Shown here in pieces: positions 1,936-47,764 of a stretch of DNA of 64,000 bases. The stretch lies in NCBI GenBank assembly GCA_964519455.1, contig CAZFIU010000005.1, positions 3,749 to 67,748 of the forward strand, read 5' to 3'. The stretch comes from an uncultured Syntrophobacterales bacterium. GTDB lineage: Bacteria; Desulfobacterota; Binatia; UBA9968; JAJDTQ01. The notes below the pieces were generated by a model that worked only from the letters and a program-made list of their open reading frames with translations, ran no database searches and was not told the origin of the DNA. Both the position numbers and the translations under genes were made by a program. How positions within the stretch are numbered: position 1 is the stretch's first letter; the number at the start of each line of letters is the position of its first letter.

Positions 1936-4668
1936 TTAGAACTTCCAGATGAAGTCGACGCGGCCTGAGTAGTCGGTGTCACCCGAACCCGGGCCGCCCG
2001 CCGCCACTTGCGCGCCGAGCGCGAACCGCCCTTTGCGCCAGCTCCCGCCCAGCCCGAGCAGAACGCGGGTTGCGGGGGCTTCGGATTCGAGAGTCTCCCC
2101 GGAAACGCTCGTGCTGGTTTCCGCGCCGCCCAGGGCGCGCTCGACATCCGCCGAGGCGCGCAGGGTGAGCGCCCCGCCCCCGAGGGTGCGCGCGGTCCCG
2201 GCGGAGAGTCCCACGCCGCCCGTGTACCGCGTGCTCTTGGAGAGGGAGACACGGGAGCCCAGCGCATCCGTGAACCCGCCGGCCGATATCGAACGGCTCG
2301 CTGCCCACGCCCGTGGCGTGAAGGTCATCTTCTCGCCGTAAGCGATGAGGCGGCCCGCCTCGAATCCCGCGTAGTGGCCGTTGGCATCGATGTCTCGGGC
2401 GAGGCCGCCGCGCTTCCGTGAGGAGACGTCCACGTCGTAGTCCATGAGCGCAAAGCGCCCGCGCCAGTAGTAGGCCCCCGGCCCGCTCCAGGAGAGGCCC
2501 ACGGCGCCGCCCATGCCCTTCGCGTCGATATCCCCCGCGCCGTAGGGCGATTTGACGTCGGCGGATCCCTTCGAGTGGCGCAGGGAGAACGAGCCGGCGA
2601 GGTTCCCGCCCAGGGAGAAGTCGATGCCCGCCTCGGCGGCGAAGCGGCGGAAGTCGTAGTTCGCGCCGGCGCTCGCGTGCCGGGGCTCGTACGAGCCACG
2701 CCCGCTCGATATCCTCGCCCACACGGGCGAGCCGGACTGCGCCACGCGCCTGCCGGAAGGTCTTCGGCCATCGAGCCTGAGCAAGAAACCGGGCAGAGCC
2801 TCGTACACGGCGGCGCGCGGAGCGTAGGTCTCGATGAAGTCCTGTGGTGTGAACGTCCGGCCCTGAACCGTCTCGCTCGCCGAGACGGTGAGGTCCCGCG
2901 CCCCTCTCGCCACGGTGGCGCCCGTGGCGCCCGTCGCGCCCTCGTGCAGCGTGACGCCGTTCACCACCAGCGTGGTCTCGCCCCCTTCGTTGCGAATCGC
3001 GCCCCCACGGAGGACCTCCGCCACCCGGCGCTCGTCGAGGTCCATCTCCACGCGCAGCCTGGGCGTGCCGCCGGACGCGAGAATCGCGACCTGAGACGCC
3101 GCGCCGAGTGCCCCCTTCGGCCCGATGGCCACCGTGCCGCCGCCCGCGAGGAACACGCCCGCGGCCAACTCGCCCGAGCCGCCCGTGACGGGCGCGTTCA
3201 CCGCAACGCGCTGCTGGCGGTAGCCATCCTCGCCCACGGGTGCGGCGAGCGAGACGGTTCCGTCCTCCGCCAGGCGGCCCATCCGCACGCCGCTCGCCCC
3301 GGCGCCCGCGGCGTGGATGGACCCGCCCTCTATCATGATATGGGCCGAACCCGACCCCTCACTCAGGACGCCGTCCGCCCCCGCGCCCGTCGTGGCGACG
3401 AAGGCGTCGTGAACTTCGAGGCCGATGGCACCCTCGCCTTGATGCACACCGTAGATGCCGTTGGCTTCGTCTCCCGCCGTGGTGATGGCGACGCCTTGCG
3501 CCGTGATGTTCACTTCGCCTGAGCCTTGATGCCAACCGTAGATGCCGTTGGCTTCGTCTCCCGCCGTGGTGATAGCGAGGTCCCGGGTAGTGAGCGCCAC
3601 TTCGCCCTCGCCTAGATGCAGACCGGAGATGCCGGCGGCCGCGTCTCCGGACATGGTGATGTCGAGACCTTGGGTGGTCAGCGCCACTTCGCCCTTGCCT
3701 TCATGCCAACCAATGACGCCGATGGCGTGCTCTCCCGCCGCGTTGATGGCGACGTCGCGAACTTCGAGGCTGATGTCGCCCTCGCCTTGATGCAGACTGG
3801 AGATGCCGGCGGCGCGGTCTCCCGCCGTGTCGATGGCGAGGTCCCGGGCGGTGAGCGCCACATCGCCCTTGCCTTCATGCCAACCGACGATGCCGGTAGC
3901 GGTGAATCCGGCCGTGTCGATGGTGAGGCCCCGGGCGGTCAGCGCCACATCGCCCCTGCCTTCATGCCGACCGACGATGCCGGTAGCGACGAATCCGGCC
4001 GTGTTGATGGTGAGGTCCCGGGCGGTCAACGCCAGTTCGCCCTCGCCCTGATGCTCACCGTAGATGCCGTAGGCGAAGTCTCCCGCCGTGTCGATGTTCG
4101 CGCCTCGGACGACGATGTCAAGTGCACCGGCGCTGCCTTCAGAACGAAAACCGTGGATCGCGTGGGAAAGCGATCCCATGGTTGTAAAGTCTCCGCCCGA
4201 AATTTCCATGCGCAGCGCGCCCGACTTCCCGTAGTGGCCGGCGAAGATGCCCCGCGCGTTCGAGGTCACGTCGGCGGAGGAGGAGAGCGAGATGTCCCCC
4301 GCATATTCCCCGAATTCCCCCGGCGCTATCCAGACCGCGCCGTTGAGGCGAGTGTCATCGTCTGGGTGGACGTACACGTCGTCGCCGGGACGCTCGCGGT
4401 CGTAGCGTATCGAGAGGTCTTCGGTGAGGCGGATGGTGAAGTCGCTGCTCGTCTCGTCCCTGCCGTGCTCGTCATGGCTGTAAAAGATATTGCCGTCCGC
4501 GGGATCGTACGTGGAGGGCGAGCAGACAACATCCTGTCCCGCTTGAGGCGGGCCGCACTCGCTCTCCGCCCGCGCCGCCTGGCCTGTGAGCATGCAGACG
4601 GCGGCCAGCGCGAGGGCGACGGTCACGCCGCGGCTTTGTCTAAAATCCCGGGTAGGAACGAAGTGCAT
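1936..4668 (-). CDS. autotransporter-family outer-membrane protein (signal peptide, repeat passenger, C-terminal beta-barrel)
   Basis: The ORF is 1936..4809. The likely true start is the in-frame ATG at 4668, giving MHFVPTRDFRQSRGVTVALALAAVCMLTGQAARA. About 9 tandem 29-aa units follow. The C-terminal region has an alternating pattern and ends GRVDFIWKF; a terminal aromatic is typical of OM barrels. Confidence 0.8.
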   Translation of the reverse strand: MHFVPTRDFRQSRGVTVALALAAVCMLTGQAARAESECGPPQAGQDVVCSPSTYDPADGNIFYSHDEHGRDETSSDFTIRLTEDLSIRYDRERPGDDVYVHPDDDTRLNGAVWIAPGEFGEYAGDISLSSSADVTSNARGIFAGHYGKSGALRMEISGGDFTTMGSLSHAIHGFRSEGSAGALDIVVRGANIDTAGDFAYGIYGEHQGEGELALTARDLTINTAGFVATGIVGRHEGRGDVALTARGLTIDTAGFTATGIVGWHEGKGDVALTARDLAIDTAGDRAAGISSLHQGEGDISLEVRDVAINAAGEHAIGVIGWHEGKGEVALTTQGLDITMSGDAAAGISGLHLGEGEVALTTRDLAITTAGDEANGIYGWHQGSGEVNITAQGVAITTAGDEANGIYGVHQGEGAIGLEVHDAFVATTGAGADGVLSEGSGSAHIMIEGGSIHAAGAGASGVRMGRLAEDGTVSLAAPVGEDGYRQQRVAVNAPVTGGSGELAAGVFLAGGGTVAIGPKGALGAASQVAILASGGTPRLRVEMDLDERRVAEVLRGGAIRNEGGETTLVVNGVTLHEGATGATGATVARGARDLTVSASETVQGRTFTPQDFIETYAPRAAVYEALPGFLLRLDGRRPSGRRVAQSGSPVWARISSGRGSYEPRHASAGANYDFRRFAAEAGIDFSLGGNLAGSFSLRHSKGSADVKSPYGAGDIDAKGMGGAVGLSWSGPGAYYWRGRFALMDYDVDVSSRKRGGLARDIDANGHYAGFEAGRLIAYGEKMTFTPRAWAASRSISAGGFTDALGSRVSLSKSTRYTGGVGLSAGTARTLGGGALTLRASADVERALGGAETSTSVSGETLESEAPATRVLLGLGGSWRKGRFALGAQVAAGGPGSGDTDYSGRVDFIWKF
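3410..4110 (-). repeat. in-frame tandem coding repeats of about 87 bp (29 aa) inside the autotransporter passenger
   Basis: Units such as TAGFVATGIVGRHEGRGDVALTARGLTID and TAGFTATGIVGWHEGKGDVALTARDLAID follow one another directly in the 957-aa ORF. Confidence 0.75.
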
Positions 4669-6093: not shown

Positions 6094-6867
6094 TCATCGT
6101 CCCTCGGCGATCAACAGGTAGCCTCGGTTCTCCACGGTATCGAAGGTGCGCATGGCCTTGATCAGATCGGCCGCGCTCACCCACACCCACGGGGCCCGGT
6201 TCGGGTTGACGTCCATGATCAGAAAGGAATCGCTCGCCTCATCATAGGCTCCGAGGGGGGAGATGTGCCCGCCGCCTTTCTGGCCCAGGGTCTTGCGGTG
6301 GTAGTTCACGAGCACGTAGTCACCGGGGGCGGCCAGGTTCTTCGCCAGCTCACGTTTGATCACGTCGTCGTTCGTCTCCTCATCGACCACGCGGACCCTC
6401 ACATCGAGTTCGTGGGCGCTCAGGGCCTGGGCCAGTTGCCGGAGTTGCAGGCCAAAGTCCTTCTTCATGGCCCCCTGGATCTCGATGGGCTTGCCCAGCA
6501 CCTCGATCTTGGTCTTGGTCCGGTCGGTGAGGACGTTGTTCGGCGTGTACTTCCCGAAGAAGGGGTTGAACCCCTGGGGGAGCCAAGCGCGTTCATCCTC
6601 CGCGATGGAGTGGGTGTCCTGGGGGAGCCCCTTCTTCTTGCCCAGCCTCAGCGCGTTCAAGACGATGGCCGAAGAGACAGGCCCGCAGAAGATCTTGTTG
6701 TCCTGGCTGATGAAGTGGTTGCTCAGCCGGAAGAAGTCCGCCTTGTGGGCGGAGCGCGACAGGCGCACGGAGCTCTCTTCGGACTCCCACTCGACCAGAC
6801 CGGCCGCGGCGCCGGCATGGCCCAGGAGAAGGCCCACCAGAAGCAGTACAGTCGGAACGTGTCTCAT
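6094..6867 (-). CDS. secreted phytochelatin synthase-like (papain-fold gamma-glutamylcysteine transpeptidase-like) protein
   Basis: It has a signal peptide MRHVPTVLLLVGLLLGHAGAAAG. The motif FCGPVSSAIVLNAL supplies the catalytic Cys context, GGGHISPLGAYD the His, and FLIMDV the Asp. This matches my memory of bacterial PCS-like proteins (Pfam Phytochelatin family). Confidence 0.7.
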   Translation of the reverse strand: MRHVPTVLLLVGLLLGHAGAAAGLVEWESEESSVRLSRSAHKADFFRLSNHFISQDNKIFCGPVSSAIVLNALRLGKKKGLPQDTHSIAEDERAWLPQGFNPFFGKYTPNNVLTDRTKTKIEVLGKPIEIQGAMKKDFGLQLRQLAQALSAHELDVRVRVVDEETNDDVIKRELAKNLAAPGDYVLVNYHRKTLGQKGGGHISPLGAYDEASDSFLIMDVNPNRAPWVWVSAADLIKAMRTFDTVENRGYLLIAEGR

Positions 6868-6895
6868 GGGACCTCCTTGGGCACGCTGGCATGGG

Positions 6896-7681
6896 TCACG
6901 ACATCAACCGCCCGCCTGACACGTTCAACGCCTCACCCGTGGTATGCGACGAATCGCTCGACGCCAGGAACAGGGCGGCGTTGGCCACCTCTTCGTGCAG
7001 TGCGTGTTTCCGGAGCGGGGTCTGCTTCAGGACGCTCTCCCACAACTCCTCGAAGGACACGCCCAGGCCTTCCGCCCGGTCGCGGTACATCTCGCGCAGG
7101 TCGGCTTCGTCCATGCCCCCGGGGCAGATGACGTTGGCGCGCACGCCCGAGGGGCCGGCTTCCTTGGCGATGGTCTGAGTGAGACCCAGGAGGCCCCACT
7201 TGGCGGCGCACAGGGAGCCGCGCAGCGCCATGCCCTCGCGGCCGGCGGTGCCGGAGATGCTGACGATGCTGCCGTGCTTCTGCTCGATCATCACGGGCAG
7301 AGCGGCCTTGCAGCAGAGGAAGATGGCCTTGAGGTTGACGTTGAGGACGTTGTCCCATTCCTCTTCGGTGATCTCGTGTACCTCGACCATGGGACCGCGG
7401 AAGCCGACGCTGTTGACGAGGATGTCCAGCCGGCCCCAGCGCGCCACCACGTCCGCCACCATCCGCTCGACCTGCCCCAGGTCGGTGGCGTCGGCGGTCA
7501 TGGCCACCGCCTCGCCGTGGTTTTCCCGGATGGATTGAGCGACGGCGTCCAACTCGGTTTTCGTCCTTTGCAGGTCCACGAGGGCGATCTTCGCGCCCTC
7601 GCCGGCGAAGGTGCGGGCGATGCCTTCGCCGATGCCGCGGGCACCGCCGACGATGACTGCTACTTGGTTTGCCAGTTTCAT
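6896..7681 (-). CDS. short-chain dehydrogenase/reductase family protein (atypical active site)
   Basis: The protein is 261 aa. It has the N-terminal dinucleotide motif VGGARGIG and NVNLKA, and SISGTAG supplies the Ser. The YxxxK position reads LCAAK, and PGG follows downstream. Confidence 0.85.
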   Translation of the reverse strand: MKLANQVAVIVGGARGIGEGIARTFAGEGAKIALVDLQRTKTELDAVAQSIRENHGEAVAMTADATDLGQVERMVADVVARWGRLDILVNSVGFRGPMVEVHEITEEEWDNVLNVNLKAIFLCCKAALPVMIEQKHGSIVSISGTAGREGMALRGSLCAAKWGLLGLTQTIAKEAGPSGVRANVICPGGMDEADLREMYRDRAEGLGVSFEELWESVLKQTPLRKHALHEEVANAALFLASSDSSHTTGEALNVSGGRLMS

Positions 7682-7742
7682 GGGTTCCTCCCAGCCTTGT
7701 TGCGGTGATTGTCGAGGGACATACGCCCCGCCCCGAAAGGTT

Positions 7743-7975
7743 ATTGATATGAAAACAAAATCTTGTTCAATGATTTCTGGTAGTTACGGAATCCCGCTAC
7801 ACCCCAATGAGTCATTCCCGCGGAAGCGGGAATCCAGGGGTGAGGAGGGGCAAGACGGGCGTTCCCCCGCCTCACCCAGCCTGGATTCCCGCTTTCGCGG
7901 GAATGACTCATTGGGGCGTCGGTGCCAGTTCTTGTCCGGGCGATGTTGTGACACAGTCTGTTCCGGGGGAATGAC
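7743..7975. repeat. family-A composite repeat: AT-rich module, inverted pair of hairpin cores, tail unit
   Basis: The order is attgatatgaaaacaaaatcttgttcaatgatttctggtagttacgg, then GTCATTCCCGCGGAAGCGGGAATCCAGG, a centre, CCTGGATTCCCGCTTTCGCGGGAATGAC, and a unit ending GGGGGAATGAC. Confidence 0.85.
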
Positions 7976-8052
7976 GAAAGTGTGCGGTTTGGCGCTTTCT
8001 CCACTCCAACGACGGGTTCAGGCGTGAAAGTACCACCCCCGTCGCGAATGCA

Positions 8053-9036
8053 TCAAGCCGCCCCCAGCGCGGTCACTACGGCGATGACGCCGGCGACGGT
8101 GACGCCGGAGAAGATCGTGGTCCAGAAGACGATGTCGCCGGTGAGCTCGGCGTCGCCGTCGAGCTTGATGGTGAGGATCAGCGTGTTGACGGCGGTGGGG
8201 GCGGCGGCGCCGATGACGAGGTGGGCGCCGGGCCAGGGCCAGAGGCCGAAGGCGTAGGCCACGACGCCGATGAGCGCGGGCAAGGCCAGCAGTTTGACGA
8301 AGGCGATGGGCACGACCTCGCGCCATCGGCGCCAGCGGGCGCCTCTGGCGAGTTGGGCGCCCAGGGCGACGAGCATCATGGGCACCAGAGCGCCGGCCAG
8401 CGAGCGCAGGGGAAACGAGGCCCATACCGGCAGGAAGTCCGCCCCGTTGAACGACCTGAGACGGATCTCCCGAAGCACGAAGGAGGTCACGAGTGCGTAG
8501 GGTATGGGGAGCTTGAGGATACCCAGGGCCTCCCGCGCGCGCCCGCCCTTGGCCACCGCCAGCACCGCGTAGCCCAGGATCCATACCAGCAGGTTGCTGA
8601 GCATCACCACCAGCGCCTGCACGTGCAGGCCGGCTTCCGTGTCCGGCTGGCCCCGGAAAAGCGTGCCGCCCTCCACGTAGAGAAGGTGGGCCACGGGTAT
8701 GCCGAAGTTGCCGGCGTTGAACACGATGCTCCCGAGGATGGCGGCGGCGACGGTCTCGTTGGGGGCGTGGATGGCGCGGCAGCCCGCGAGCAGCAGAATC
8801 CCCAGGACGCCCAGCACGATCAGGAAGACCAGGGCGATGAGCAAGATCTCACCCCAGGGGATGTCGCTGTCGTAGATCTTCACCAGCAGGAACGACGGCA
8901 CCAGCAGGTACATGCTGATGCGGGCGAGGGTCTCCAGGCTCAGCGGCTGGTAGCGCTGGAGCAGCGTGCCGAAGCCCACCATGAGCAGTAGCGGCAGCAG
9001 GATGTTGTAGAGGATCTGGCCGGTGTGGTGCAGCAT
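8053..9036 (-). CDS. AEC (auxin efflux carrier) family membrane transporter
   Basis: The protein is 327 aa and polytopic. Its N-terminus ILYNILLPLLLMVGFGTLL and two-halves architecture are typical of the family. Confidence 0.7.
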   Translation of the reverse strand: MLHHTGQILYNILLPLLLMVGFGTLLQRYQPLSLETLARISMYLLVPSFLLVKIYDSDIPWGEILLIALVFLIVLGVLGILLLAGCRAIHAPNETVAAAILGSIVFNAGNFGIPVAHLLYVEGGTLFRGQPDTEAGLHVQALVVMLSNLLVWILGYAVLAVAKGGRAREALGILKLPIPYALVTSFVLREIRLRSFNGADFLPVWASFPLRSLAGALVPMMLVALGAQLARGARWRRWREVVPIAFVKLLALPALIGVVAYAFGLWPWPGAHLVIGAAAPTAVNTLILTIKLDGDAELTGDIVFWTTIFSGVTVAGVIAVVTALGAA

Positions 9037-9235
9037 GGTGTGGGAAAGGACGTGCTACCGGCCGGGTGTGCGGAGTCGCGATCTGGCCCGCGTGGTGGAA
9101 AGTCTCCCGTGCGACCGCGGCTTGCAGGCAGGAAGGCACCGGCGCTTCGAGGTTCCCGCCGGAGCGGGTCCCCGAAGCGCCGGGTAACGAACTACGTGAC
9201 GCAGGATACTGGGGGTTCGTCCGGGAAAGTGAGAT

Positions 9236-9286
9236 GTCCTTCGACTTCGCCTGTCCCGAGCTTGGCCAAGGGCTCGGAACGAACGG
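9236..9286. repeat. family-B intergenic repeat
   Basis: GTCCTTCGACTTCGC...GGCTCGGAACGAACGG. Related copies lie at 9860, 12381, 27578 and 55519. Confidence 0.7.
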
Positions 9287-9330
9287 CGATTCCCCGCGAA
9301 CTCCCTGAAGAACTGCTCACCGAACGGTGA

Positions 9331-9819
9331 CTACCCCGCGGATTCCGCGAAGAACTTGCCGGGCATCTCGATGGGCGGCAGCGTCTTGTTCTCCTCCGAG
9401 TCGGAAGGAATCTCTTTGCCGTCCGGGCCGAGGCGCGCGTCGTCGCCCCGAGGCGGCTTGGCGTCGATGCCGCAGCCGATGCGCAGCACCACGAGGTTGC
9501 CGTCGCCGGTGTTGAGGTAGCGGTAGTACGCGCCCTTGGGGATCATGATGCCCTGGTACTTGTCGATCTTCAGCTCGTTGCCCTTCTCGTCGAACACCGA
9601 CATCTGCCCTTCGAGCACGACGAACGAGTGGTCCTCGTCCAGGTGGCAGTGGACCGCGTTCTCGCCGCCCTCGGAGTTGATCTTGGTGTGTATCCACATG
9701 TTGTCGGTCTTGGCCACGAGCTGCGTGACCCGGCCCTGCTGCATGTAGGGGGTCTTCAGCGAATACCGGTAGGCCTTGGGCCTTTCCTCGACTTCTTGCT
9801 TCTCCGCGAGTGCTTCCAT
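9331..9819 (-). CDS. cupin domain protein
   Basis: ATG 9819 is preceded by AAAGGAGATCACC. MEALAEKQEV...GGENAVHCHLDEDHSFVVLEGQ...IPKGAYYRY fits the two cupin motifs. The 523-aa ORF in the track is an artefactual upstream extension of this gene. Confidence 0.8.
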   Translation of the reverse strand: MEALAEKQEVEERPKAYRYSLKTPYMQQGRVTQLVAKTDNMWIHTKINSEGGENAVHCHLDEDHSFVVLEGQMSVFDEKGNELKIDKYQGIMIPKGAYYRYLNTGDGNLVVLRIGCGIDAKPPRGDDARLGPDGKEIPSDSEENKTLPPIEMPGKFFAESAG

Positions 9820-9859
9820 GGTGATCTCCTTTCGAACGTTTCGTGTTCTTTGCGGGATG

Positions 9860-9916
9860 GCGCCCTTCGACTCCGCTTGTCCTGAGCCTGTCGAAGGGCT
9901 CGGGGTGAACGGCGCC
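9860..9916. repeat. family-B intergenic repeat
   Basis: GCGCCCTTCGACTCCGCTTGTCCTGAGCCTGTCGAAGGGCTCGGGGTGAACGGCGC is internally palindromic (CCCTTCGAC / GTCGAAGGG). Confidence 0.7.
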
Positions 9917-9938
9917 TTCTCAATCGATCGAAGTCCCC

Positions 9939-11000
9939 TCAGGCGTTGACGCCCCCCAGCTTGAGGTCGTACAGCCGCAGCACGTTCTCGCGCACGACCT
10001 TGCGGAAGATGTCCCTCGGCAAGTGCCCCAGTTCGTCGGCGATGACCTGGCGCGAGTGCGGCCAGGTGGACGCCGCGTGCGGGTAGTCGTTGGACCACAT
10101 GCAGGTCTCGCTGCCCCACCAGTCCAGCAGCCGTCCGCCCGTGGGGTCGCTGAAGAAGGTGGCGTAGAACTGCTCGTTGCAGTACTCGCTCGGGAGCTTC
10201 TTCATGTGCGGCAGCGGCGCGCGCGTGGCGTGGCGCTTGAAGTACTTGTCCCACTCGTGGAGGTAGAACGGCACCCACGAGATCTCGTTCTCCACGTAGA
10301 CGAACTTGAGGTCCGGGTAGTTGGACATGGGGCCGCCGAAGACAAGGTCGAACAACGTGTTGGCGGCGTCCGCCAGCTTCTGGTTGACGGTCATGCGGTA
10401 GATGTCCAGACCGTGCCGCTCGTAGCGGCTGTAGTTGAAGCCCGTCAGGATGTGCAGGTTGACGGGCATCCGGAGGTCCTGCGCCGCCTCCCAGAACGGG
10501 TTGTAGTGGTCGCTGGTGAAGGGAAGGTGGTCCGGCGGCACCTGCCAGATCAGGACGCCCACCAGCCCGGCCTTCTTGCAGCGCTCCATCTCCTTGATGG
10601 CGTTGTCGACGTTGTAGAGCGAGACCGACGGTACGCCGACGAGCTTGTCGGGGTGCACGTTGCAGTAGTCGATGAGCCAGTCGTTGGCGATTTCGAAGCA
10701 GGCCTCCTGGAGCTCCGCGTCCTCCAGGGCGAACAGGCGCAGCCCCAGGGTCGGGTACAGCACCTCGGCGGACACGCCGTCCACCGCCATCTCCTCGATC
10801 CGAGCCTTGGGATCGTAGCCGCCGGGCTTCTCGCCGATGGCGTTGCGGGGCGGGAACTCGGGATAGCGGCCCTTGAAGCTCTCCGGCAGGTTGTTCACCC
10901 ACAGGTCCGTGGGTTCCATGATGTGGGAGTCCGCCGATACGACGATCTCGGCGGCAAGCTCCTCCAGGGCACTCGTTGCGGTTGATTCACTTACGCTCAC
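9939..11000 (-). CDS. amidohydrolase_2 family metal-dependent hydrolase/decarboxylase
   Basis: It starts at GTG 11000, downstream of GAGGAGG. The N-terminal VVSADSHIMEP carries the HxH-type metal motif, and the protein is 353 aa. Confidence 0.8.
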   Translation of the reverse strand: MSVSESTATSALEELAAEIVVSADSHIMEPTDLWVNNLPESFKGRYPEFPPRNAIGEKPGGYDPKARIEEMAVDGVSAEVLYPTLGLRLFALEDAELQEACFEIANDWLIDYCNVHPDKLVGVPSVSLYNVDNAIKEMERCKKAGLVGVLIWQVPPDHLPFTSDHYNPFWEAAQDLRMPVNLHILTGFNYSRYERHGLDIYRMTVNQKLADAANTLFDLVFGGPMSNYPDLKFVYVENEISWVPFYLHEWDKYFKRHATRAPLPHMKKLPSEYCNEQFYATFFSDPTGGRLLDWWGSETCMWSNDYPHAASTWPHSRQVIADELGHLPRDIFRKVVRENVLRLYDLKLGGVNA

Positions 11001-43260: not shown

Positions 43261-44046
43261 TTGGGAAAGATAATCGCCATAGCCAATCAGAAGGGCGGTG
43301 TCGGGAAGACCACCACCGCCGTGAATCTCGGCGCGTCCCTGGCGGTCGCCAGCAAACGTACGCTCCTGGTGGACATGGACCCACAAAGCAACAGCACCAC
43401 GGGTTTCGGGATCGACCGGGACGCTCTCAACAAGAGCATCTACGACGTGATGCTCGAGGACTGTTTTGCCACCGAGGCCCTGTGCGCGACAGAGTTGCCC
43501 CTCCTGTTCCTCCTGCCGGCCAACCGTGACCTCGTTAGCGCCGAATTGCGGCTGATGGATATGGAGAACCGCGTCGGAAGGCTCCGGGACGCCCTGGAGA
43601 CGGTCAAGCACCGGTTCGACTATATACTTCTGGATTGCCCGCCCTCCCTGGGTTTGCTCACTCTCAACGCTCTCGTCGCCGCGGATTCGCTGCTGGTACC
43701 GCTACAGTGCGAGTACTACGCGCTTGAAGGTCTCAGCGCGATTCTTGATACGATGAAACGTGTGCAGGATGCATACAATCCGGATTTGAAGCTCGAAGGG
43801 GTCGTTCTCTGCATGTACGATGCCCGCAGCAACCTGTCCGCGCAGGTGGCGGAGGATGTCCGCGGCCATTTTCCGGAACAAGTGTTTCGAAATGTCATTC
43901 CCAGAAACGTCCGCCTGAGCGAAAGCCCCAGCCACGGCAGGCCCGCCCTGCTGTACGACCCCAGGTCCAAGGGGGCACAGGGCTACCTGGGCCTTGCGGC
44001 CGAAGTAATGGACCGTCAGAAGGAGTCCACGCATGCAGAAGCCTAG
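43261..44046 (+). CDS. parA: chromosome partitioning ATPase ParA (Soj)
   Basis: It starts at [31 protein letters not shown] contains the deviant Walker A motif. Confidence 0.9.
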
Positions 44047-44896
44047 ACTGGGAAGGGGCCTCGACGCCCTGTTGCCGAAGAGCACGCCGACGGTGCGGGA
44101 GCCCGCACCGGAGCCTTCGCCCATGGCGGTGCATCCCTCTTTGATCGCCCCCAATCCGAATCAACCCCGGCGGGTCTTTGACGAGGCCAGGATCGACGAT
44201 TTGGCAAGGTCCATCGAGGCCGGCGGGATGCTTCAACCTCTGGTCGTGCGCAGGAGCCCCGGCGGCTACGAGTTGATTGCCGGCGAGCGCCGCCTGCGTG
44301 CCGCCCGGCGCCTGGGTCTCTCCGAGGTACCCGTAATCGTTCATGAAACGCCGGACTCCAACACTCTGCTGCTGGCCTTGATCGAGAACCTTCAACGCGA
44401 GGACCTGAATCCCATCGAGGAAGCCGCCGCATTCGCCGAGTTGCAGGAACAGTTCGACTTGACTCAGGAACAGGTCGCCGGGCAGGTCGGCAGAAGCCGT
44501 TCCGCGGTGGCGAACTCCCTGCGACTCCTGTCACTCCCCGACGAAATCAAGCAACACGTGGCCCGCGGTGCATTGCCCGCCGGCCAGGCCCGTGCGCTCC
44601 TCGCCCTGGAAAACCCCGCCATGCTCGCGGCGGCGGCGCGCGAAGTCATGGCCAAGGACCTGTCCACGCGCGAAACCGAAGCCCTGGTGAAGCGACTCAA
44701 GCGTGAAAGGCGCCCCAAGACCGAGCATCGACCGGATCCCGACCTCACGAACCTGGTCGAGACCCTGCAACGCCGCCTCGGCACCCGTGTCCGGCTCATG
44801 CACCGTGCTCGCGACGGCAAGGGCAAGCTGGAGATCGAGTACTATTCGCAGGACGACCTGGGGCGGATCGCGGAGATGATGATGGGACACGGGTAG
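44033..44896 (+). CDS. parB: chromosome partitioning protein ParB (Spo0J)
   Basis: LGRGLDALL, the ParB box ..[12 protein letters not shown].. and an HTH region are present. It overlaps parA by 14 nt. Confidence 0.9.
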
Positions 44897-44998
44897 GTCA
44901 ACCCGGAGCCGACGAGGATGAGGGGAAAGCTACGTCCTTCGGTATCGCGGTCAGGATGATGTTGCAGCGGAGGCGCTGTTTTGGCACTATAGCGGACT

Positions 44999-45733
44999 TT
45001 GACGCGGGCGGTGAAACTGACGGATGGCATGCGCATTACACCAGAAATCAGTGGCGTCGGTATAGTCTTGGTCGGCGAGTTCAAACCAGCGACGTTCACC
45101 CCGGTTTGGTTCTCGACGCACGGCCTATTGCCGGAACCAGCCGACAAGGGCACGCAGTCACAGGTGCTCCAGGAGCAGGTGGTGGCAGCGTTTTCCACTG
45201 AATGGCTCCGGCTTGAGGTAACCCCCAACCGGTTCTTGGGAGAAACCTTGCAAGCGCCCCACATTCGTCTGCGAGACTTCGTCGTTCGCGTGTTTAAGGA
45301 GCAATTGGATCAGACACCACTCGTCGGGTTGGGGATCAACCGCCAGGTTCATTTTCAAGTCAAGACTTCGGCAGTAAGAGATCGGATTGGAAGGAGATTG
45401 GCTCCGGTAGAACCGTGGGGTGCGTGGAAGGATATCCTCCATCTGGATGGCAAGTACGGCGGGATGACATCACTGACCATGTCACAACGTAAGCCGGAGG
45501 ATCGGCTCGATGGGGGGAGCATCAATGTCAAGATTGAGCCATCCAACAGAATCGGCCAAGGAGGAACGGGGGTCTACGTCGCGATCAACGATCACTACGC
45601 AGGCGATCTGTCAGAACCTGGTTCAACAAGGTTCCTGGTAGAGTTGCTTGAGGACAATTTCGAGACATCATTAAGGCGTAGCGACGGTATCATCGATCAC
45701 GTTATGTCCTTGGGAGATACGCCAGAGGTATAG
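44999..45733 (+). CDS. hypothetical protein (first gene of a three-gene cassette)
   Basis: The protein is 244 aa. The start is uncertain: TTG 44999, GTG 45011 or ATG 45029. GC is lower than in the flanks. I recognised no catalytic motif. It is faintly reminiscent of TIGR04255-type uncharacterised proteins, which I have not verified. Confidence 0.6.
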   Translation: MTRAVKLTDGMRITPEISGVGIVLVGEFKPATFTPVWFSTHGLLPEPADKGTQSQVLQEQVVAAFSTEWLRLEVTPNRFLGETLQAPHIRLRDFVVRVFKEQLDQTPLVGLGINRQVHFQVKTSAVRDRIGRRLAPVEPWGAWKDILHLDGKYGGMTSLTMSQRKPEDRLDGGSINVKIEPSNRIGQGGTGVYVAINDHYAGDLSEPGSTRFLVELLEDNFETSLRRSDGIIDHVMSLGDTPEV

Positions 45734-45736
45734 ATC

Positions 45737-46339
45737 ATGCCGCGGACAGCACAATTCGCAACGCTGCAACGTGCCAGCGCGTGCGATGATGTCAACAGCC
45801 CCGAGATGAACACAACCATTGAGGACACAGCTATGGACCGGGAGGAGTCCATGGTTACCAAGTTGTCCCATGGAACGGATGCTTTCATGAACAGTGTTCA
45901 CGCGTCTCAGGGGGAGATGAATAGCTTGGGTCTGCTTACAGGGAGTGAACTGAACGAGTCCAGCGCCACGGCGGCCGTAAGGCCACACACCACGGCCACG
46001 CCTGCTGCGTCCCTACACGCTCTTCAGGAATGGGAGGGCTATGTCACGGAAATCAAGGAATCGGAGTTCGTGGCCAACCTGTTGGACGTTACCGCAGGAG
46101 ACATCTACGCAGGCGAAGAAGCGGTGATTCCTCTCGAGGAAATATCGGAAACCGACGCGGCCAAGATGCACACGGGCAGCATCTTCCGCTGGGTGATAGG
46201 GTACGAACGCGCCCCTTCATCCGGAAACAAGAGGCGTGTCTCGCAAATCGTGTTTCGCGACCTGCCAGCATTCACGAAACGAGATTTGAAAGAGGCGGAG
46301 GAGTGGGCTGAAGAGATGATGGCGGTCTTCGACAAGTGA
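45737..46339 (+). CDS. hypothetical protein (second gene of the cassette)
   Basis: ATG lies 4 nt after the upstream stop and is preceded by GAGG. The N-terminal half is S/T/A-rich and low in complexity. The C-terminal ~100 aa look globular (..WEGYVTEI...GSIFRWVIGY..). Confidence 0.55.
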   Translation: MPRTAQFATLQRASACDDVNSPEMNTTIEDTAMDREESMVTKLSHGTDAFMNSVHASQGEMNSLGLLTGSELNESSATAAVRPHTTATPAASLHALQEWEGYVTEIKESEFVANLLDVTAGDIYAGEEAVIPLEEISETDAAKMHTGSIFRWVIGYERAPSSGNKRRVSQIVFRDLPAFTKRDLKEAEEWAEEMMAVFDK

Positions 46340-47424
46340 CCGAGCTAGAGACACCAGGTACGCCGCCGGGCCCGAATGAACTTGAGATTACCCTTTTTGG
46401 GCCAGGGTATGGGGAGAGCATGGTCCTGCACACCGGTGGCGGCAACTGGACGATTGTTGACTCCTGCATCGACCGCGATGGCGATCCGCGGCCGCTAGGG
46501 TACCTGAGGAGTATCGGAGTTGACCCTTCACAGGCCGTTGAACTGATCGTCGCGACTCACTGGCATGATGATCACATACGCGGAATGTCCCGGTTGCTCA
46601 AAGTCTGCGAAAGAGCCGTCTTCTGCTGTTCCGCGGCGCTTTGCACCAGAGAGTTCTTGGCTGTAGTAGGTGTCTGGGGTAGGCGCCACGTGACTCCTGA
46701 TGGCTCTGGTGTCAGGGAGATTCACGATGTGCTCACCAACCTCCGTACTAGAGGTAAACAACCGACGTTCGCTTTGGCGAACCGGCTGATCCATTCCCGA
46801 AACGGGTGCAGGACCTGGTCACTCTCTCCGGGAGACGCGGATTATCGCAAATTTCTGACTTCCGTCGTCTCCTTGTACCCGGATGCTGGCGAGACGAAGA
46901 CGAGGATCCCGTCCATGTCTCCAAACGACGTGGCTGTGGTGGTCTGGATCGACGCCGATGACACAAGCATCCTGCTCGGGTCGGACGCTGAGAAGGCCGT
47001 TTGGTTGGAGATATTGCAGAGTCGCCAAACCGGCGGCCGTGCATCAATTTTCAAGATTCCACATCACGGGTCGGCGGACGCGCACGAAGAGCGTGTCTGG
47101 GGACAAATGCTTGATAATTCACCGGTCTCCGTGTTGACACCTTGGCGCAGGGGAGGTCGTGTCCTGCCGACCCGGCATGATGTTCAGCGAATTCTCAAGC
47201 GAACGGACAATGCCTTCACTACGTCCAGGGCCGAACTCACCGGGGAATCGGGAAAGCGCCGCGACCGTACGGTGGACCGAACCGTACGAGAGTCCAAGGT
47301 AACGCTCCGGCGGCAACCGCTCGTGACAGGTATGGTCCAGTCAAGGCGTGAGATTGGCACTGGCTCGGAATGGAAGGTCGAAATGTTCGGCCCGGCCTGC
47401 CATCTTCGTGACTATGCTGCGTAG
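46336..47424 (+). CDS. metallo-beta-lactamase fold protein, ComEC/Rec2 C-terminal-domain-like
   Basis: The GTG start overlaps the upstream stop (GTGA). LEITLFGPGYGESMVLHTGGGNWTIVDSC, the HxHxDH motif THWHDDHIRG and KIPHHGS are present. Confidence 0.75.
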   Translation: MTELETPGTPPGPNELEITLFGPGYGESMVLHTGGGNWTIVDSCIDRDGDPRPLGYLRSIGVDPSQAVELIVATHWHDDHIRGMSRLLKVCERAVFCCSAALCTREFLAVVGVWGRRHVTPDGSGVREIHDVLTNLRTRGKQPTFALANRLIHSRNGCRTWSLSPGDADYRKFLTSVVSLYPDAGETKTRIPSMSPNDVAVVVWIDADDTSILLGSDAEKAVWLEILQSRQTGGRASIFKIPHHGSADAHEERVWGQMLDNSPVSVLTPWRRGGRVLPTRHDVQRILKRTDNAFTTSRAELTGESGKRRDRTVDRTVRESKVTLRRQPLVTGMVQSRREIGTGSEWKVEMFGPACHLRDYAA

Positions 47425-47451
47425 CTCCGAACGGTGAGTTCGGTGCTCGCT

Positions 47452-47480
47452 TTGACAAGCTCAGGCTCGGATGTTATAGA
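47452..47480 (+). promoter_or_regulatory. sigma-70-type promoter candidate
   Basis: TTGACA (47452-47457), a 17-nt spacer, then TATAGA (47475-47480). It lies about 285 nt upstream of the first atp gene. Confidence 0.45.
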
Positions 47481-47546
47481 CCCCTTCCGTGGCAGGCAGT
47501 TGAACGAGGTTTGCCTCCCTCCGACTGCGCGCGCGCATCCATCAAG

Positions 47547-47574
47547 CACGGTCCGTTCGGGCCGTGTTTCGTGT
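47547..47574 (+). terminator. intrinsic terminator/attenuator-like hairpin
   Basis: CACGGTCC-GTTC-GGGCCGTG forms 8 bp with a tetraloop and is followed by TTTCGTGT. Confidence 0.35.
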
Positions 47575-47764
47575 AACTGATGGGATTATCGGGGCTTTTC
47601 CTTTGCCCGGGGCTTCGGGCCGCGGTCACGGCGAGACGCTACCGGTCAACGTGGGAAGGGAACGACACGCCGCCTGACGGCATTCGGTTTCACGCCATCT
47701 CAGAACTCCCGCCGGCTCGGGCCGTTGGCCCGCGTCCGGCGTTTTCAGCAATCCGACGCGTAGC

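Follow-up and report, generated by a model that had tools for sequence, protein, structure and literature searches.

A recurrent three-gene cassette with a ComEC-like metallo-beta-lactamase-fold protein between parB and the atp operon: a candidate immune-type module

The window analysed here is a 64,000-nucleotide stretch of contig CAZFIU010000005.1 (assembly GCA_964519455.1, positions 3,749 to 67,748 of the forward strand) from an uncultured Syntrophobacterales bacterium of the Binatia. Between parB and the atp operon it carries three plus-strand open reading frames (ORFs), here called A, B and C, the last of which encodes a protein with a metallo-beta-lactamase (MBL) fold. The triad is kept as a unit at unrelated loci in more than ten phyla, and we consider it probable that the three genes form an autonomous immune-type module, horizontally mobile and acting against invading DNA of phages or plasmids, with C as the effector, a function that we infer from context. 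A first-pass annotation of the window had singled out the cassette as a candidate undescribed system with a probable nuclease effector and two partner proteins, and this proposal is supported by the co-conservation of the triad, by the match of C to ComEC and by the mobile contexts described below. A more specific version, which we hold only tentatively and at somewhat less than even odds, is that the triad represents a new and widespread anti-phage or anti-plasmid family, in which a ComEC-type MBL nuclease would be licensed without proteolysis by A, with a fold like that of the TATA-binding protein (TBP), and by B, an acidic barrel protein with a variable disordered tail, and which would have spread laterally across more than ten phyla, apparently for the most part in sponge symbionts, and into prophages of Escherichia coli.

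Conservation and layout of the triad

A one-genome-per-species scan with an A profile gave 126 relatives, from which 80 loci were retained, and the triad was called at each locus with our own profile hidden Markov models (HMMs) for A, B and C. Essentially all of these species-level loci, recovered with A alone, carry A-B-C in this order and on one strand. They span more than ten phyla, with protein identities of 50-75% between phyla, and at five of them (L011, L044, L045, L052 and L067) C is broken or interrupted and A and B are intact. The same architecture was found in much more distant versions: on a plasmid of Adhaeribacter swui (identities of 31% for A, 32% for B and 29% for C), on two metagenome contigs (L087 and L088) and in an integrase-bounded island (L091). 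It is also present on a conjugative plasmid of Pantoea agglomerans (hhalign values of 82% for A and 67% for B, with a negative control at 0.1%) and in lambdoid prophages of E. coli (hhalign 70% for A, 92% for B and 99.9% for C; proteins WP_000143147, WP_162543785 and WP_001198055), where it occurs in only 15 of 5426 genomes. The co-occurrence of the three genes outside the window, on which the first-pass annotation had made its proposal depend, thus extends over 80 loci and to distant versions in Bacteroidota and Enterobacterales.

Homologues of A and B are labelled as hypothetical proteins in RefSeq, and an exhaustive HMM search of 1.84 billion proteins gave 2327 clusters at 50% identity for the A family, whose members are almost all stand-alone proteins of about 230 residues. 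A tblastn search with A and C gave no match in 50,697 phage records, and L084, the sole IMG/VR contig with the triad, shows no clear phage genes. Across the loci, the GC content of the triad averages 5 points below that of the flanks, a deficit seen at nearly all of them, and tracks that of the host (r = 0.82).

Judging from the record titles, nearly all of the 80 carriers are apparently metagenome-assembled genomes (MAGs) of sponge-typical groups (Latescibacterota, Binatia, Gemmatimonadota, Acidobacteriota, Entotheonella and Spirochaetia). The names COS4_bin and IRC4_bin are presumably those of bins from a sponge MAG study, the text of which confirms only that Coscinoderma and Ircinia were sampled. 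The carriage of the triad across phyla looks like lateral spread within one habitat, apparently the sponge microbiome. In the study that sampled Coscinoderma and Ircinia, restriction-modification (RM) and CRISPR systems were enriched in the symbionts and evidence of lateral transfer was presented (PMC8163846).

The features of the locus in the window are as follows.

44033-44896: parB; further upstream neighbours are mnmG, rsmG and parA
44897-45028, plus strand: upstream non-coding region of 132 nt, probable promoter and 5' leader of A-B-C
45029-45733, plus strand: gene A, 234 aa, start set by alignment of homologues
45737-46339, plus strand: gene B, 200 aa, ATG start
46336-47424, plus strand: gene C, 362 aa, GTG start
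47425-47764, plus strand: boundary outside the cassette, 340 nt, with a hairpin, an atp promoter-like site and the atp leader
47765 onwards: first atp gene, the downstream neighbour of C

A 3-nt gap separates the stop of A (45733) from the ATG of B (45737), and the GTG of C (46336) overlaps the TGA of B (46337-46339) in a GTGA of 4 nt; by this spacing the three genes are predicted to be translationally coupled. In the ORF listing of the window, A extends from a TTG over 44999-45733 (244 aa). Because its homologues (n=50) are about 233 residues long and conservation in the alignment begins at M11 of the window protein, the real start is taken to be the ATG at 45029. The three same-strand ORFs with their 3-nt gap and GTGA overlap thus lie where the first-pass annotation had placed them, apart from the start of A. 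Its downstream non-coding flank of about 340 bp also stands (340 nt), whereas the upstream flank, given as about 100 bp, comes to 132 nt once the start of A is corrected. The lower GC that it had noticed is borne out as well: values of 0.53-0.58 within the cassette compare with 0.62-0.69 in the flanks, and the triad as a whole (0.570) lies about 7 points below the flanks (0.643).

The upstream 132 nt are partly conserved with the Binatia loci L003 and L004. A scan for the sigma-70 consensus on the plus strand upstream of A gave no match, nor did promoter and terminator consensus scans and Rfam at the cassette, and its borders revealed neither direct repeats nor att-like sites. On the other side, a short hairpin directly follows the stop of C (47427-47443), a promoter-like TTGACA-17 nt-TATAGA lies at 47453-47481, and the atp leader comes next; the gap aligns with L003, L004 and L006 and includes the inverted repeat I4 region. 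From this arrangement the 340-nt gap is predicted to be the conserved promoter and leader of the atp operon and not spare DNA.

At 12 loci from several phyla (L005, L007, L008, L010, L011, L013, L014, L015, L018, L027, L039 and L041) a conserved non-coding 11-mer, GCAACATGACC, is found with at most 2 mismatches 36 to 50 nt upstream of A, the background rate being 4.5% per 200 nt. It is absent upstream of A in the window. The 11-mer could be a promoter or operator.

The three proteins

C matches the Pfam family PF00753 (Lactamase_B) with an E-value of 1.7e-5 and 25.3 bits, above the cut-off of 22.7 bits. H75, H77, D79 and H80 of the HxHxDH motif, D42, D217 and H243-H244-G245 of the HHGS motif are invariant across 49 homologues, so that the MBL motifs noted at first pass are both present and strictly kept. 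With HxHxDH, the downstream Asp/His ligands and the PF00753 match, C belongs to the MBL fold superfamily. Its closest solved structure is the MBL nuclease domain of ComEC (PDB 9ic4, E 9e-9), followed by 30bt (E 1e-7), in line with the ComEC-like identity first proposed for it. Between HxHxDH and the block that aligns next, C is longer than the ComEC domain by about 40 residues, and its C-terminal 68 residues or so are conserved and basic, with a mean net charge of +8. No signal peptide was detected in C, and neither the Competence nor the DUF4131 domain of Pfam matched it.

Every NCBIfam match of C falls far under the cut-off of the family concerned. With the ComEC models the score is 24 bits, where the cut-offs are 190-969, TIGR00361 (cut-off 190 bits) covering C over profile positions 561-622 of 663 only, and the matches to glyoxalase II and B3 beta-lactamase (E 0.003-0.1) are confined to the HxHxDH region. 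In PADLOC, the window protein gave weak matches to RTasMBL, LmuA, PDC-M48B and Avs1a. The RTasMBL match has E-values of 1e-9 to 1e-11 for C and its E. coli, Pantoea and Adhaeribacter homologues, and in the E. coli and Adhaeribacter proteins it spans most of the domain. By its sequence, C is predicted to be an intact MBL-fold hydrolase closest to the ComEC nuclease domain, and a probable DNase effector.

Six cysteines of C (C44, C91, C97, C98, C158 and C355) are invariant or nearly so, which is unusual for the MBL fold. They could make an extra metal site or a redox switch.

The first-pass annotation had left both partner proteins as being of unknown fold. This no longer holds, since AlphaFold2 (AF2) models and Foldseek searches suggest a TBP-like fold for A and a small beta-barrel for B. 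A is acidic (isoelectric point, pI, about 5.9), with the hallmark motifs FNPxIFxPxWF and GINR and a mean column identity of 67%. Its model (pLDDT 80, pTM 0.79) consists of two consecutive beta-alpha-beta(3-4)-alpha units, the first with a strand at 17-26, a helix at 35-40, four strands and a helix at 88-102, and the second with a strand at 108-120, a helix at 124-134, three strands and a helix at 209-238. When the model was compared with the PDB, Foldseek returned TBP (1vok/1vol, probability 0.97-0.98), RepDE and AdoMetDC, with TM-scores of only about 0.3. In BFVD, the matches were to viral TBP, to TBP-like domains of VETF-L and to the unnamed viral protein A0A515MGR4 (E 8e-10, TM 0.57/0.66). 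Over PDB and BFVD together, the TBP probability was 0.96-0.98. We read A as a TBP-like protein of tandem beta-alpha-beta4-alpha architecture, a model-based reading weakened by the low TM-scores, by the acidity of the protein, in which it differs from DNA-binding TBPs, and by the lack of a sequence repeat, hhalign detecting none between the two halves (probability 0.2%). An A profile searched against PDB sequences gave nothing meaningful, and A has no match in Pfam, NCBIfam, PADLOC or PHROG.

The idea that A might be a cryptic protease was considered and rejected. The wide alignment of A holds no conserved Ser/His/Asp or Cys/His set, nor any other catalytic-looking set of conserved residues, and no protease-like fold was matched.

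B is strongly acidic, with a net charge of -17 and a pI of 4.6 in the window and a family pI of 4.9. Residues 1-85, rich in A, S, T and D, are predicted to be disordered (pLDDT <50), and residues 92-199 are modelled as a five-strand beta-barrel with a C-terminal helix (pLDDT about 90), which agrees with the disordered N-terminal half and compact C-terminal domain perceived at first pass. Column identity is 0.50 in the tail versus 0.77 in the domain, the net charge of which is about -7. Foldseek returned weak OB/S1-like matches (the N-domain of LysRS, exosome Csl4 and eIF5A; E 0.05-0.16), a profile search against PDB sequences gave nothing meaningful, and the barrel has no match to the ComEC OB domain in Pfam. 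No usable match was obtained in Pfam, NCBIfam, PADLOC or PHROG, the candidates Gp22 of Pfam (E 0.043) and phrog_29493 (E 0.079) being too weak to use.

Genomic contexts and history

The DUF7680 and DUF1156 genes of a DUF499-DUF7680-DUF1156-SNF2 operon directly enclose the triad at about 22 of the 80 loci; on rhizobial plasmids this operon is uninterrupted and has overlapping genes. Operons of the DUF499-DUF1156 type are BREX-related, RM-like systems that recruit auxiliary nucleases within their loci (PMC12839542). Since the DUF7680/DUF1156 gap of L001 also holds several other cassettes, namely GmrSD-N with an AAA_15 ATPase, a helicase and an AAA_15/21 gene pair, the gap appears to be a hotspot for cargo. 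DUF7680, complete or as a short 3' fragment, is found 0-700 nt upstream of A at 34 of 82 loci (for example L008, L010, L018, L019, L056, L057 and L069), even where DUF499 is missing, so that many orphan triads seem to descend from embedded ones and to have left the BREX-related operons with a piece of a neighbour. In the window, no such remnant was found in 44897-45028, and our own HMMs for DUF499, DUF1156, SNF2, DUF7680, c8 and c9 gave no match anywhere in the 64 kb.

The neighbours of the triad include GmrSD, AAA_15/21 ATPases, type III methyltransferases, MADS and AriA. The island at L091 has integrases at its bounds and contains Mor, GmrSD and SNase, and on the conjugative plasmid of Pantoea tyrosine recombinases lie on either side of the triad. 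In E. coli prophages, the triad occupies the variable gap between the antiterminator Q and holin genes, on the opposite strand, where sister prophages have a KAP NTPase, a DNA methyltransferase, a nucleoid-associated protein or hypothetical genes instead. In the prophage of E. coli RM10466 (L093), this gap corresponds to 6960-10423, and the triad is present in 13-15 genomes of the prophage group. On the RM10466 record NZ_CP028381 the triad spans 1400513-1402913, and the Pantoea plasmid that carries it is pAR24_C. Many loci, including the window, have housekeeping neighbours.

The parB/atp junction itself offers a view of how the cassette has been inherited. Two Binatia loci (L003 and L004) and one labelled Thermodesulfobacteriota (L006) match the window in mnmG/parA/parB and atp, with protein identities of 67-92%, and each of them has the triad at this junction too. 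Between the window and L003, the three genes of the triad have the same synonymous divergence (dS 0.70-0.92) as parB and atpF (0.80-0.91), and their ratio of nonsynonymous to synonymous divergence (dN/dS) is 0.17-0.24, which together indicate that the triad has co-diverged vertically with its flanks under purifying selection. In L006, on the other hand, the triad dS from the window is 2.4-3.5 as against 0.75-0.95 for the flanks, which points to a different allele at a fixed site, and thus to an apparent exchange or replacement of the cassette; a transposase-like ORF of 366 aa lies there between parB and A. The stretch of L006 compared with 44897-47424 of the window is 6690-10394. A relative with an empty parB-atp junction was not found, and insertion at this site is a conclusion that we infer from composition and distribution.

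The first-pass annotation regarded the cassette as a horizontally acquired insertion, and named presence at the same locus in close relatives, combined with native composition, as an outcome speaking for vertical inheritance. Acquisition is upheld by the foreign GC, by the unrelated loci across phyla and by the plasmids, islands and prophages that carry the triad; it was not recent, however, as the same site is occupied in three relatives. The locus part of that outcome was thus found in L003, L004 and L006, but the composition part was not, the GC being foreign. The cassette has a foreign origin and, on long time scales, is mobile; in the lineage of the window its domestication is old.

In the Binatia genomes, an element resembling a miniature inverted-repeat transposable element (MITE), with terminal inverted repeats CTAGTGTGGTGTCTCACAAATACG ... 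CGTATTTGTGAGACACCACACTAG, lies in intergenic positions beside the triad (L003 at about 7800-7990; L004 at about 10425-10610 and about 7700-7950). The window lacks this element.

As had been noted at first pass, the flanks of the cassette are free of the repeat family that occupies other gaps of the window. This family, a REP-like (repetitive extragenic palindrome-like) repeat, GTCATTCCCGCGAAAGCGGGAATCC, has at least 6 copies, at about 1873, 5933, 7807, 11110, 33317 and 53991, in addition to others, and lies in several intergenic gaps; it is absent from 44897-47764. Elsewhere in the window, arrays of 87-nt tandem repeats (29-aa units) lie within ORFs at 423-1244 and 3367-4101, and the start of the window contains a duplication of about 2.9 kb with 93-98% identity (1-300/2951-3250 and 1937-2236/4819-5118).

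Proposed role, alternatives and known systems

If A-B-C is an immune-type module, C would be its effector, a two-metal DNase of the ComEC type, the basic C-terminal tail of which probably helps to hold DNA. A and B would be obligate partners that most likely keep C latent and license it upon infection, A as a well-conserved scaffold or sensor with a TBP fold, and B through its acidic barrel and fast-evolving disordered tail, which may mask the DNA-binding surface of C or bait a phage factor. Since no protease gene is present, unlike in characterised defence MBLs, licensing would proceed through protein-protein contacts and not by proteolysis. Once released, C would degrade DNA, either that of the invader or the cell's own, as in abortive infection. 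In the lineage of the window, the cassette would have entered the parB/atp junction long ago and been vertically inherited since. The charges of the partners are complementary (a family pI of 4.9 for B versus +8 for the tail of C), and the acidity of B, its variable tail and the basic tail of C are compatible with an account in which C is restrained, without proving it.

Several observations weigh against this interpretation. A, with its 67% column identity, is well conserved and not fast-evolving as many sensors are, its TM-scores against the PDB reach only about 0.3, and the fold matches of B are weak (E about 0.05). Both A and B are acidic, which argues against direct DNA binding despite their TBP-like and OB-like folds. 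The neighbours in the window are housekeeping genes (parAB and atp), with no BREX-related gene within 64 kb, and a cassette that stays at one site with a synonymous divergence equal to that of its flanks is unusually stable for a defence gene. Outside the BREX-related operons, the defence-island signal is weak at best: in a PADLOC scan of 122 immediate neighbours from 39 such loci, with families listed by member count, the most frequent ones (type III methyltransferases, MADS and AriA) match 2-3 of the 122 neighbours each.

Four other explanations were weighed against the preferred one. The exact position of the triad between DUF7680 and DUF1156 at about 22 of 80 loci, the DUF7680 gene or 3' fragment upstream of A at 34 of 82, including loci that lack DUF499, and the frequent recruitment of auxiliary nucleases inside such loci (PMC12839542) would fit a triad that serves DUF499-DUF1156 BREX-related systems as an auxiliary or backup nuclease module, in which case the window would hold an orphan that has outlived its parent. 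We consider this unlikely, as more than half of the loci bear no BREX-related trace (among them the window, the Adhaeribacter and Pantoea plasmids, the integrase island and the E. coli prophages), purifying selection persists in orphan copies, and GmrSD, which is self-sufficient, is embedded at the same site, which suggests a hotspot and not a functional dependency. About equally unlikely is selfish addiction of the toxin-antitoxin (TA) kind, in which C would be a DNase toxin and the acidic B, together with A, its antidote, so that the module persists because its loss kills. The tight translational coupling, the pairing of a basic nuclease with a very acidic small partner, the carriage on plasmids and mobile islands and the stable retention at one chromosomal site all agree with it; with 230, 200 and 360 residues, however, the three genes exceed typical TA pairs in both size and conservation, the scheme leaves A without an obvious role, and Pfam finds no helix-turn-helix or other autoregulator domain. 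Addiction and defence are not mutually exclusive, and the loci with a broken C do not discriminate between them, as loss of the toxin first is predicted by a TA system as well.

A housekeeping function in DNA metabolism (repair, recombination or processing of taken-up DNA) that merely happens to adjoin parAB would account for the shared locus in relatives, the co-divergence with the flanks and the purifying selection; MBLs of the ComEC type have a part in the uptake of DNA (Silale et al. 2021, as cited in PMC12799240), and OB-like and TBP-like folds are classic nucleic-acid-handling folds. Against it stand the patchy distribution across phyla at unrelated loci with consistently foreign GC, the carriage as cargo of prophages, plasmids and integrative islands, the occurrence in 15 of 5426 E. 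coli genomes only, the replaced allele in L006 and the lack of a ComEC membrane channel in C; we regard this explanation as improbable. Very improbable, finally, is a metabolic role, with C as a small-molecule MBL hydrolase (a lactonase, glyoxalase or beta-lactamase-like enzyme) in an operon unrelated to nucleic acids. It could appeal to the weak glyoxalase II and B3 beta-lactamase matches in NCBIfam (E 0.003-0.1), but these are limited to the HxHxDH region and far under the cut-offs, C has the HHGS of ComEC-type enzymes, and neither a signal peptide nor a metabolic neighbour is present. Grouping with metabolic hydrolases had been named at first pass as a result that would speak against a nuclease; the best full-domain matches are instead to ComEC and to defence MBLs.

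If the triad is indeed a defence system, it would bring a new control logic for a common effector, as a second, protease-independent route for an MBL death effector, and it would give function and names to two large families of hypothetical proteins, A alone accounting for 2327 clusters. Bench tests are within reach through its versions in E. coli prophages and on the Pantoea plasmid. The triad is also a clear marker of gene flow among unrelated members of an apparent sponge microbiome, and it likewise marks the exchange of cargo within BREX-related operons.

The search for a known counterpart covered Pfam (2025), NCBIfam release 20 (June 2026), PADLOC-DB 2.0 (2023) and PHROGs, in none of which A or B found a match in any of the four triad versions tested. 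The earlier remark that the cassette corresponds to no named defence system therefore holds, in that no library of named systems recognises A or B. Full-text literature searches found no description of the triad, with a coverage that was incomplete and gives no proof of absence.

The closest comparison is with the protease-gated defence MBLs. Defence-linked MBL nucleases have only recently become known as zymogens activated by a partner protease, and the triad pairs the same kind of nuclease with unnamed partners. HamM, the Avs-associated MBLs and CanC are ComEC-like dsDNA nucleases kept latent by two disordered insertions, which occlude the active site and which a neighbouring trypsin-like, caspase or subtilisin protease cuts (PMC12799240; PMC12642450; bioRxiv 10.1101/2025.09.03.673762). 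The surplus of about 40 residues relative to ComEC is the single hint of comparable insertions in C. With this group (HamM of Hachiman-MBL, Avs1/2/4, the Lamassu- and DRT-associated MBLs and CanC of 'canu') the triad has in common a separate ComEC-like MBL gene of about 350 aa in a small multi-gene locus, and C and its homologues match RTasMBL, LmuA, Avs1a and PDC-M48B of PADLOC. The similarity of C is, however, remote and far under any family threshold, and its two partners, both unnamed, are small and acidic. A protease gene of the trypsin, caspase or subtilisin type lies beside C in none of the loci examined, and A and B gave no protease match in Pfam, NCBIfam or PADLOC, in the window or in the E. 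coli, Pantoea and Adhaeribacter triads. Likewise, an LmuB SMC-like ATPase, a reverse transcriptase and a STAND NTPase, as in Lamassu, DRT and AVAST type 1, were found neither in the window locus nor in the 80 related loci, the weak PADLOC matches being confined to the MBL component.

6A-MBL of Pseudomonas aeruginosa is an anti-phage system that is also named after an MBL-fold protein, and it is described in a review as incorporating ubiquitin-related elements (PMC13276650). Its model NF058524 matches C weakly (E 1e-5 to 9e-7), at 24.6 bits for the window protein and 28.4 bits for the E. coli protein against a cut-off of 220, and no ubiquitin-related elements were detectable in A or B. ComEC/Rec2 itself contains the closest solved MBL domain, with HxHxDH and HHGS common to both, and joins an OB-fold to the MBL domain, a loose parallel to B plus C. 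In contrast to ComEC, C is a soluble protein of 362 aa without the competence channel domain of Pfam, and the barrel of B is acidic. In the BREX-related systems, the triad occupies the position of an auxiliary effector inside the operon; the main text of the paper describing these systems (PMC12839542) lists PD-(D/E)XK, HEPN, HNH and TOPRIM nucleases and not MBL nucleases, and the triad also exists without any BREX-related gene, as in the window. What is new, then, are the partner set and the lack of a recognisable protease; small modules of several genes that include a nuclease effector and travel as cargo of the defence type are a familiar kind.

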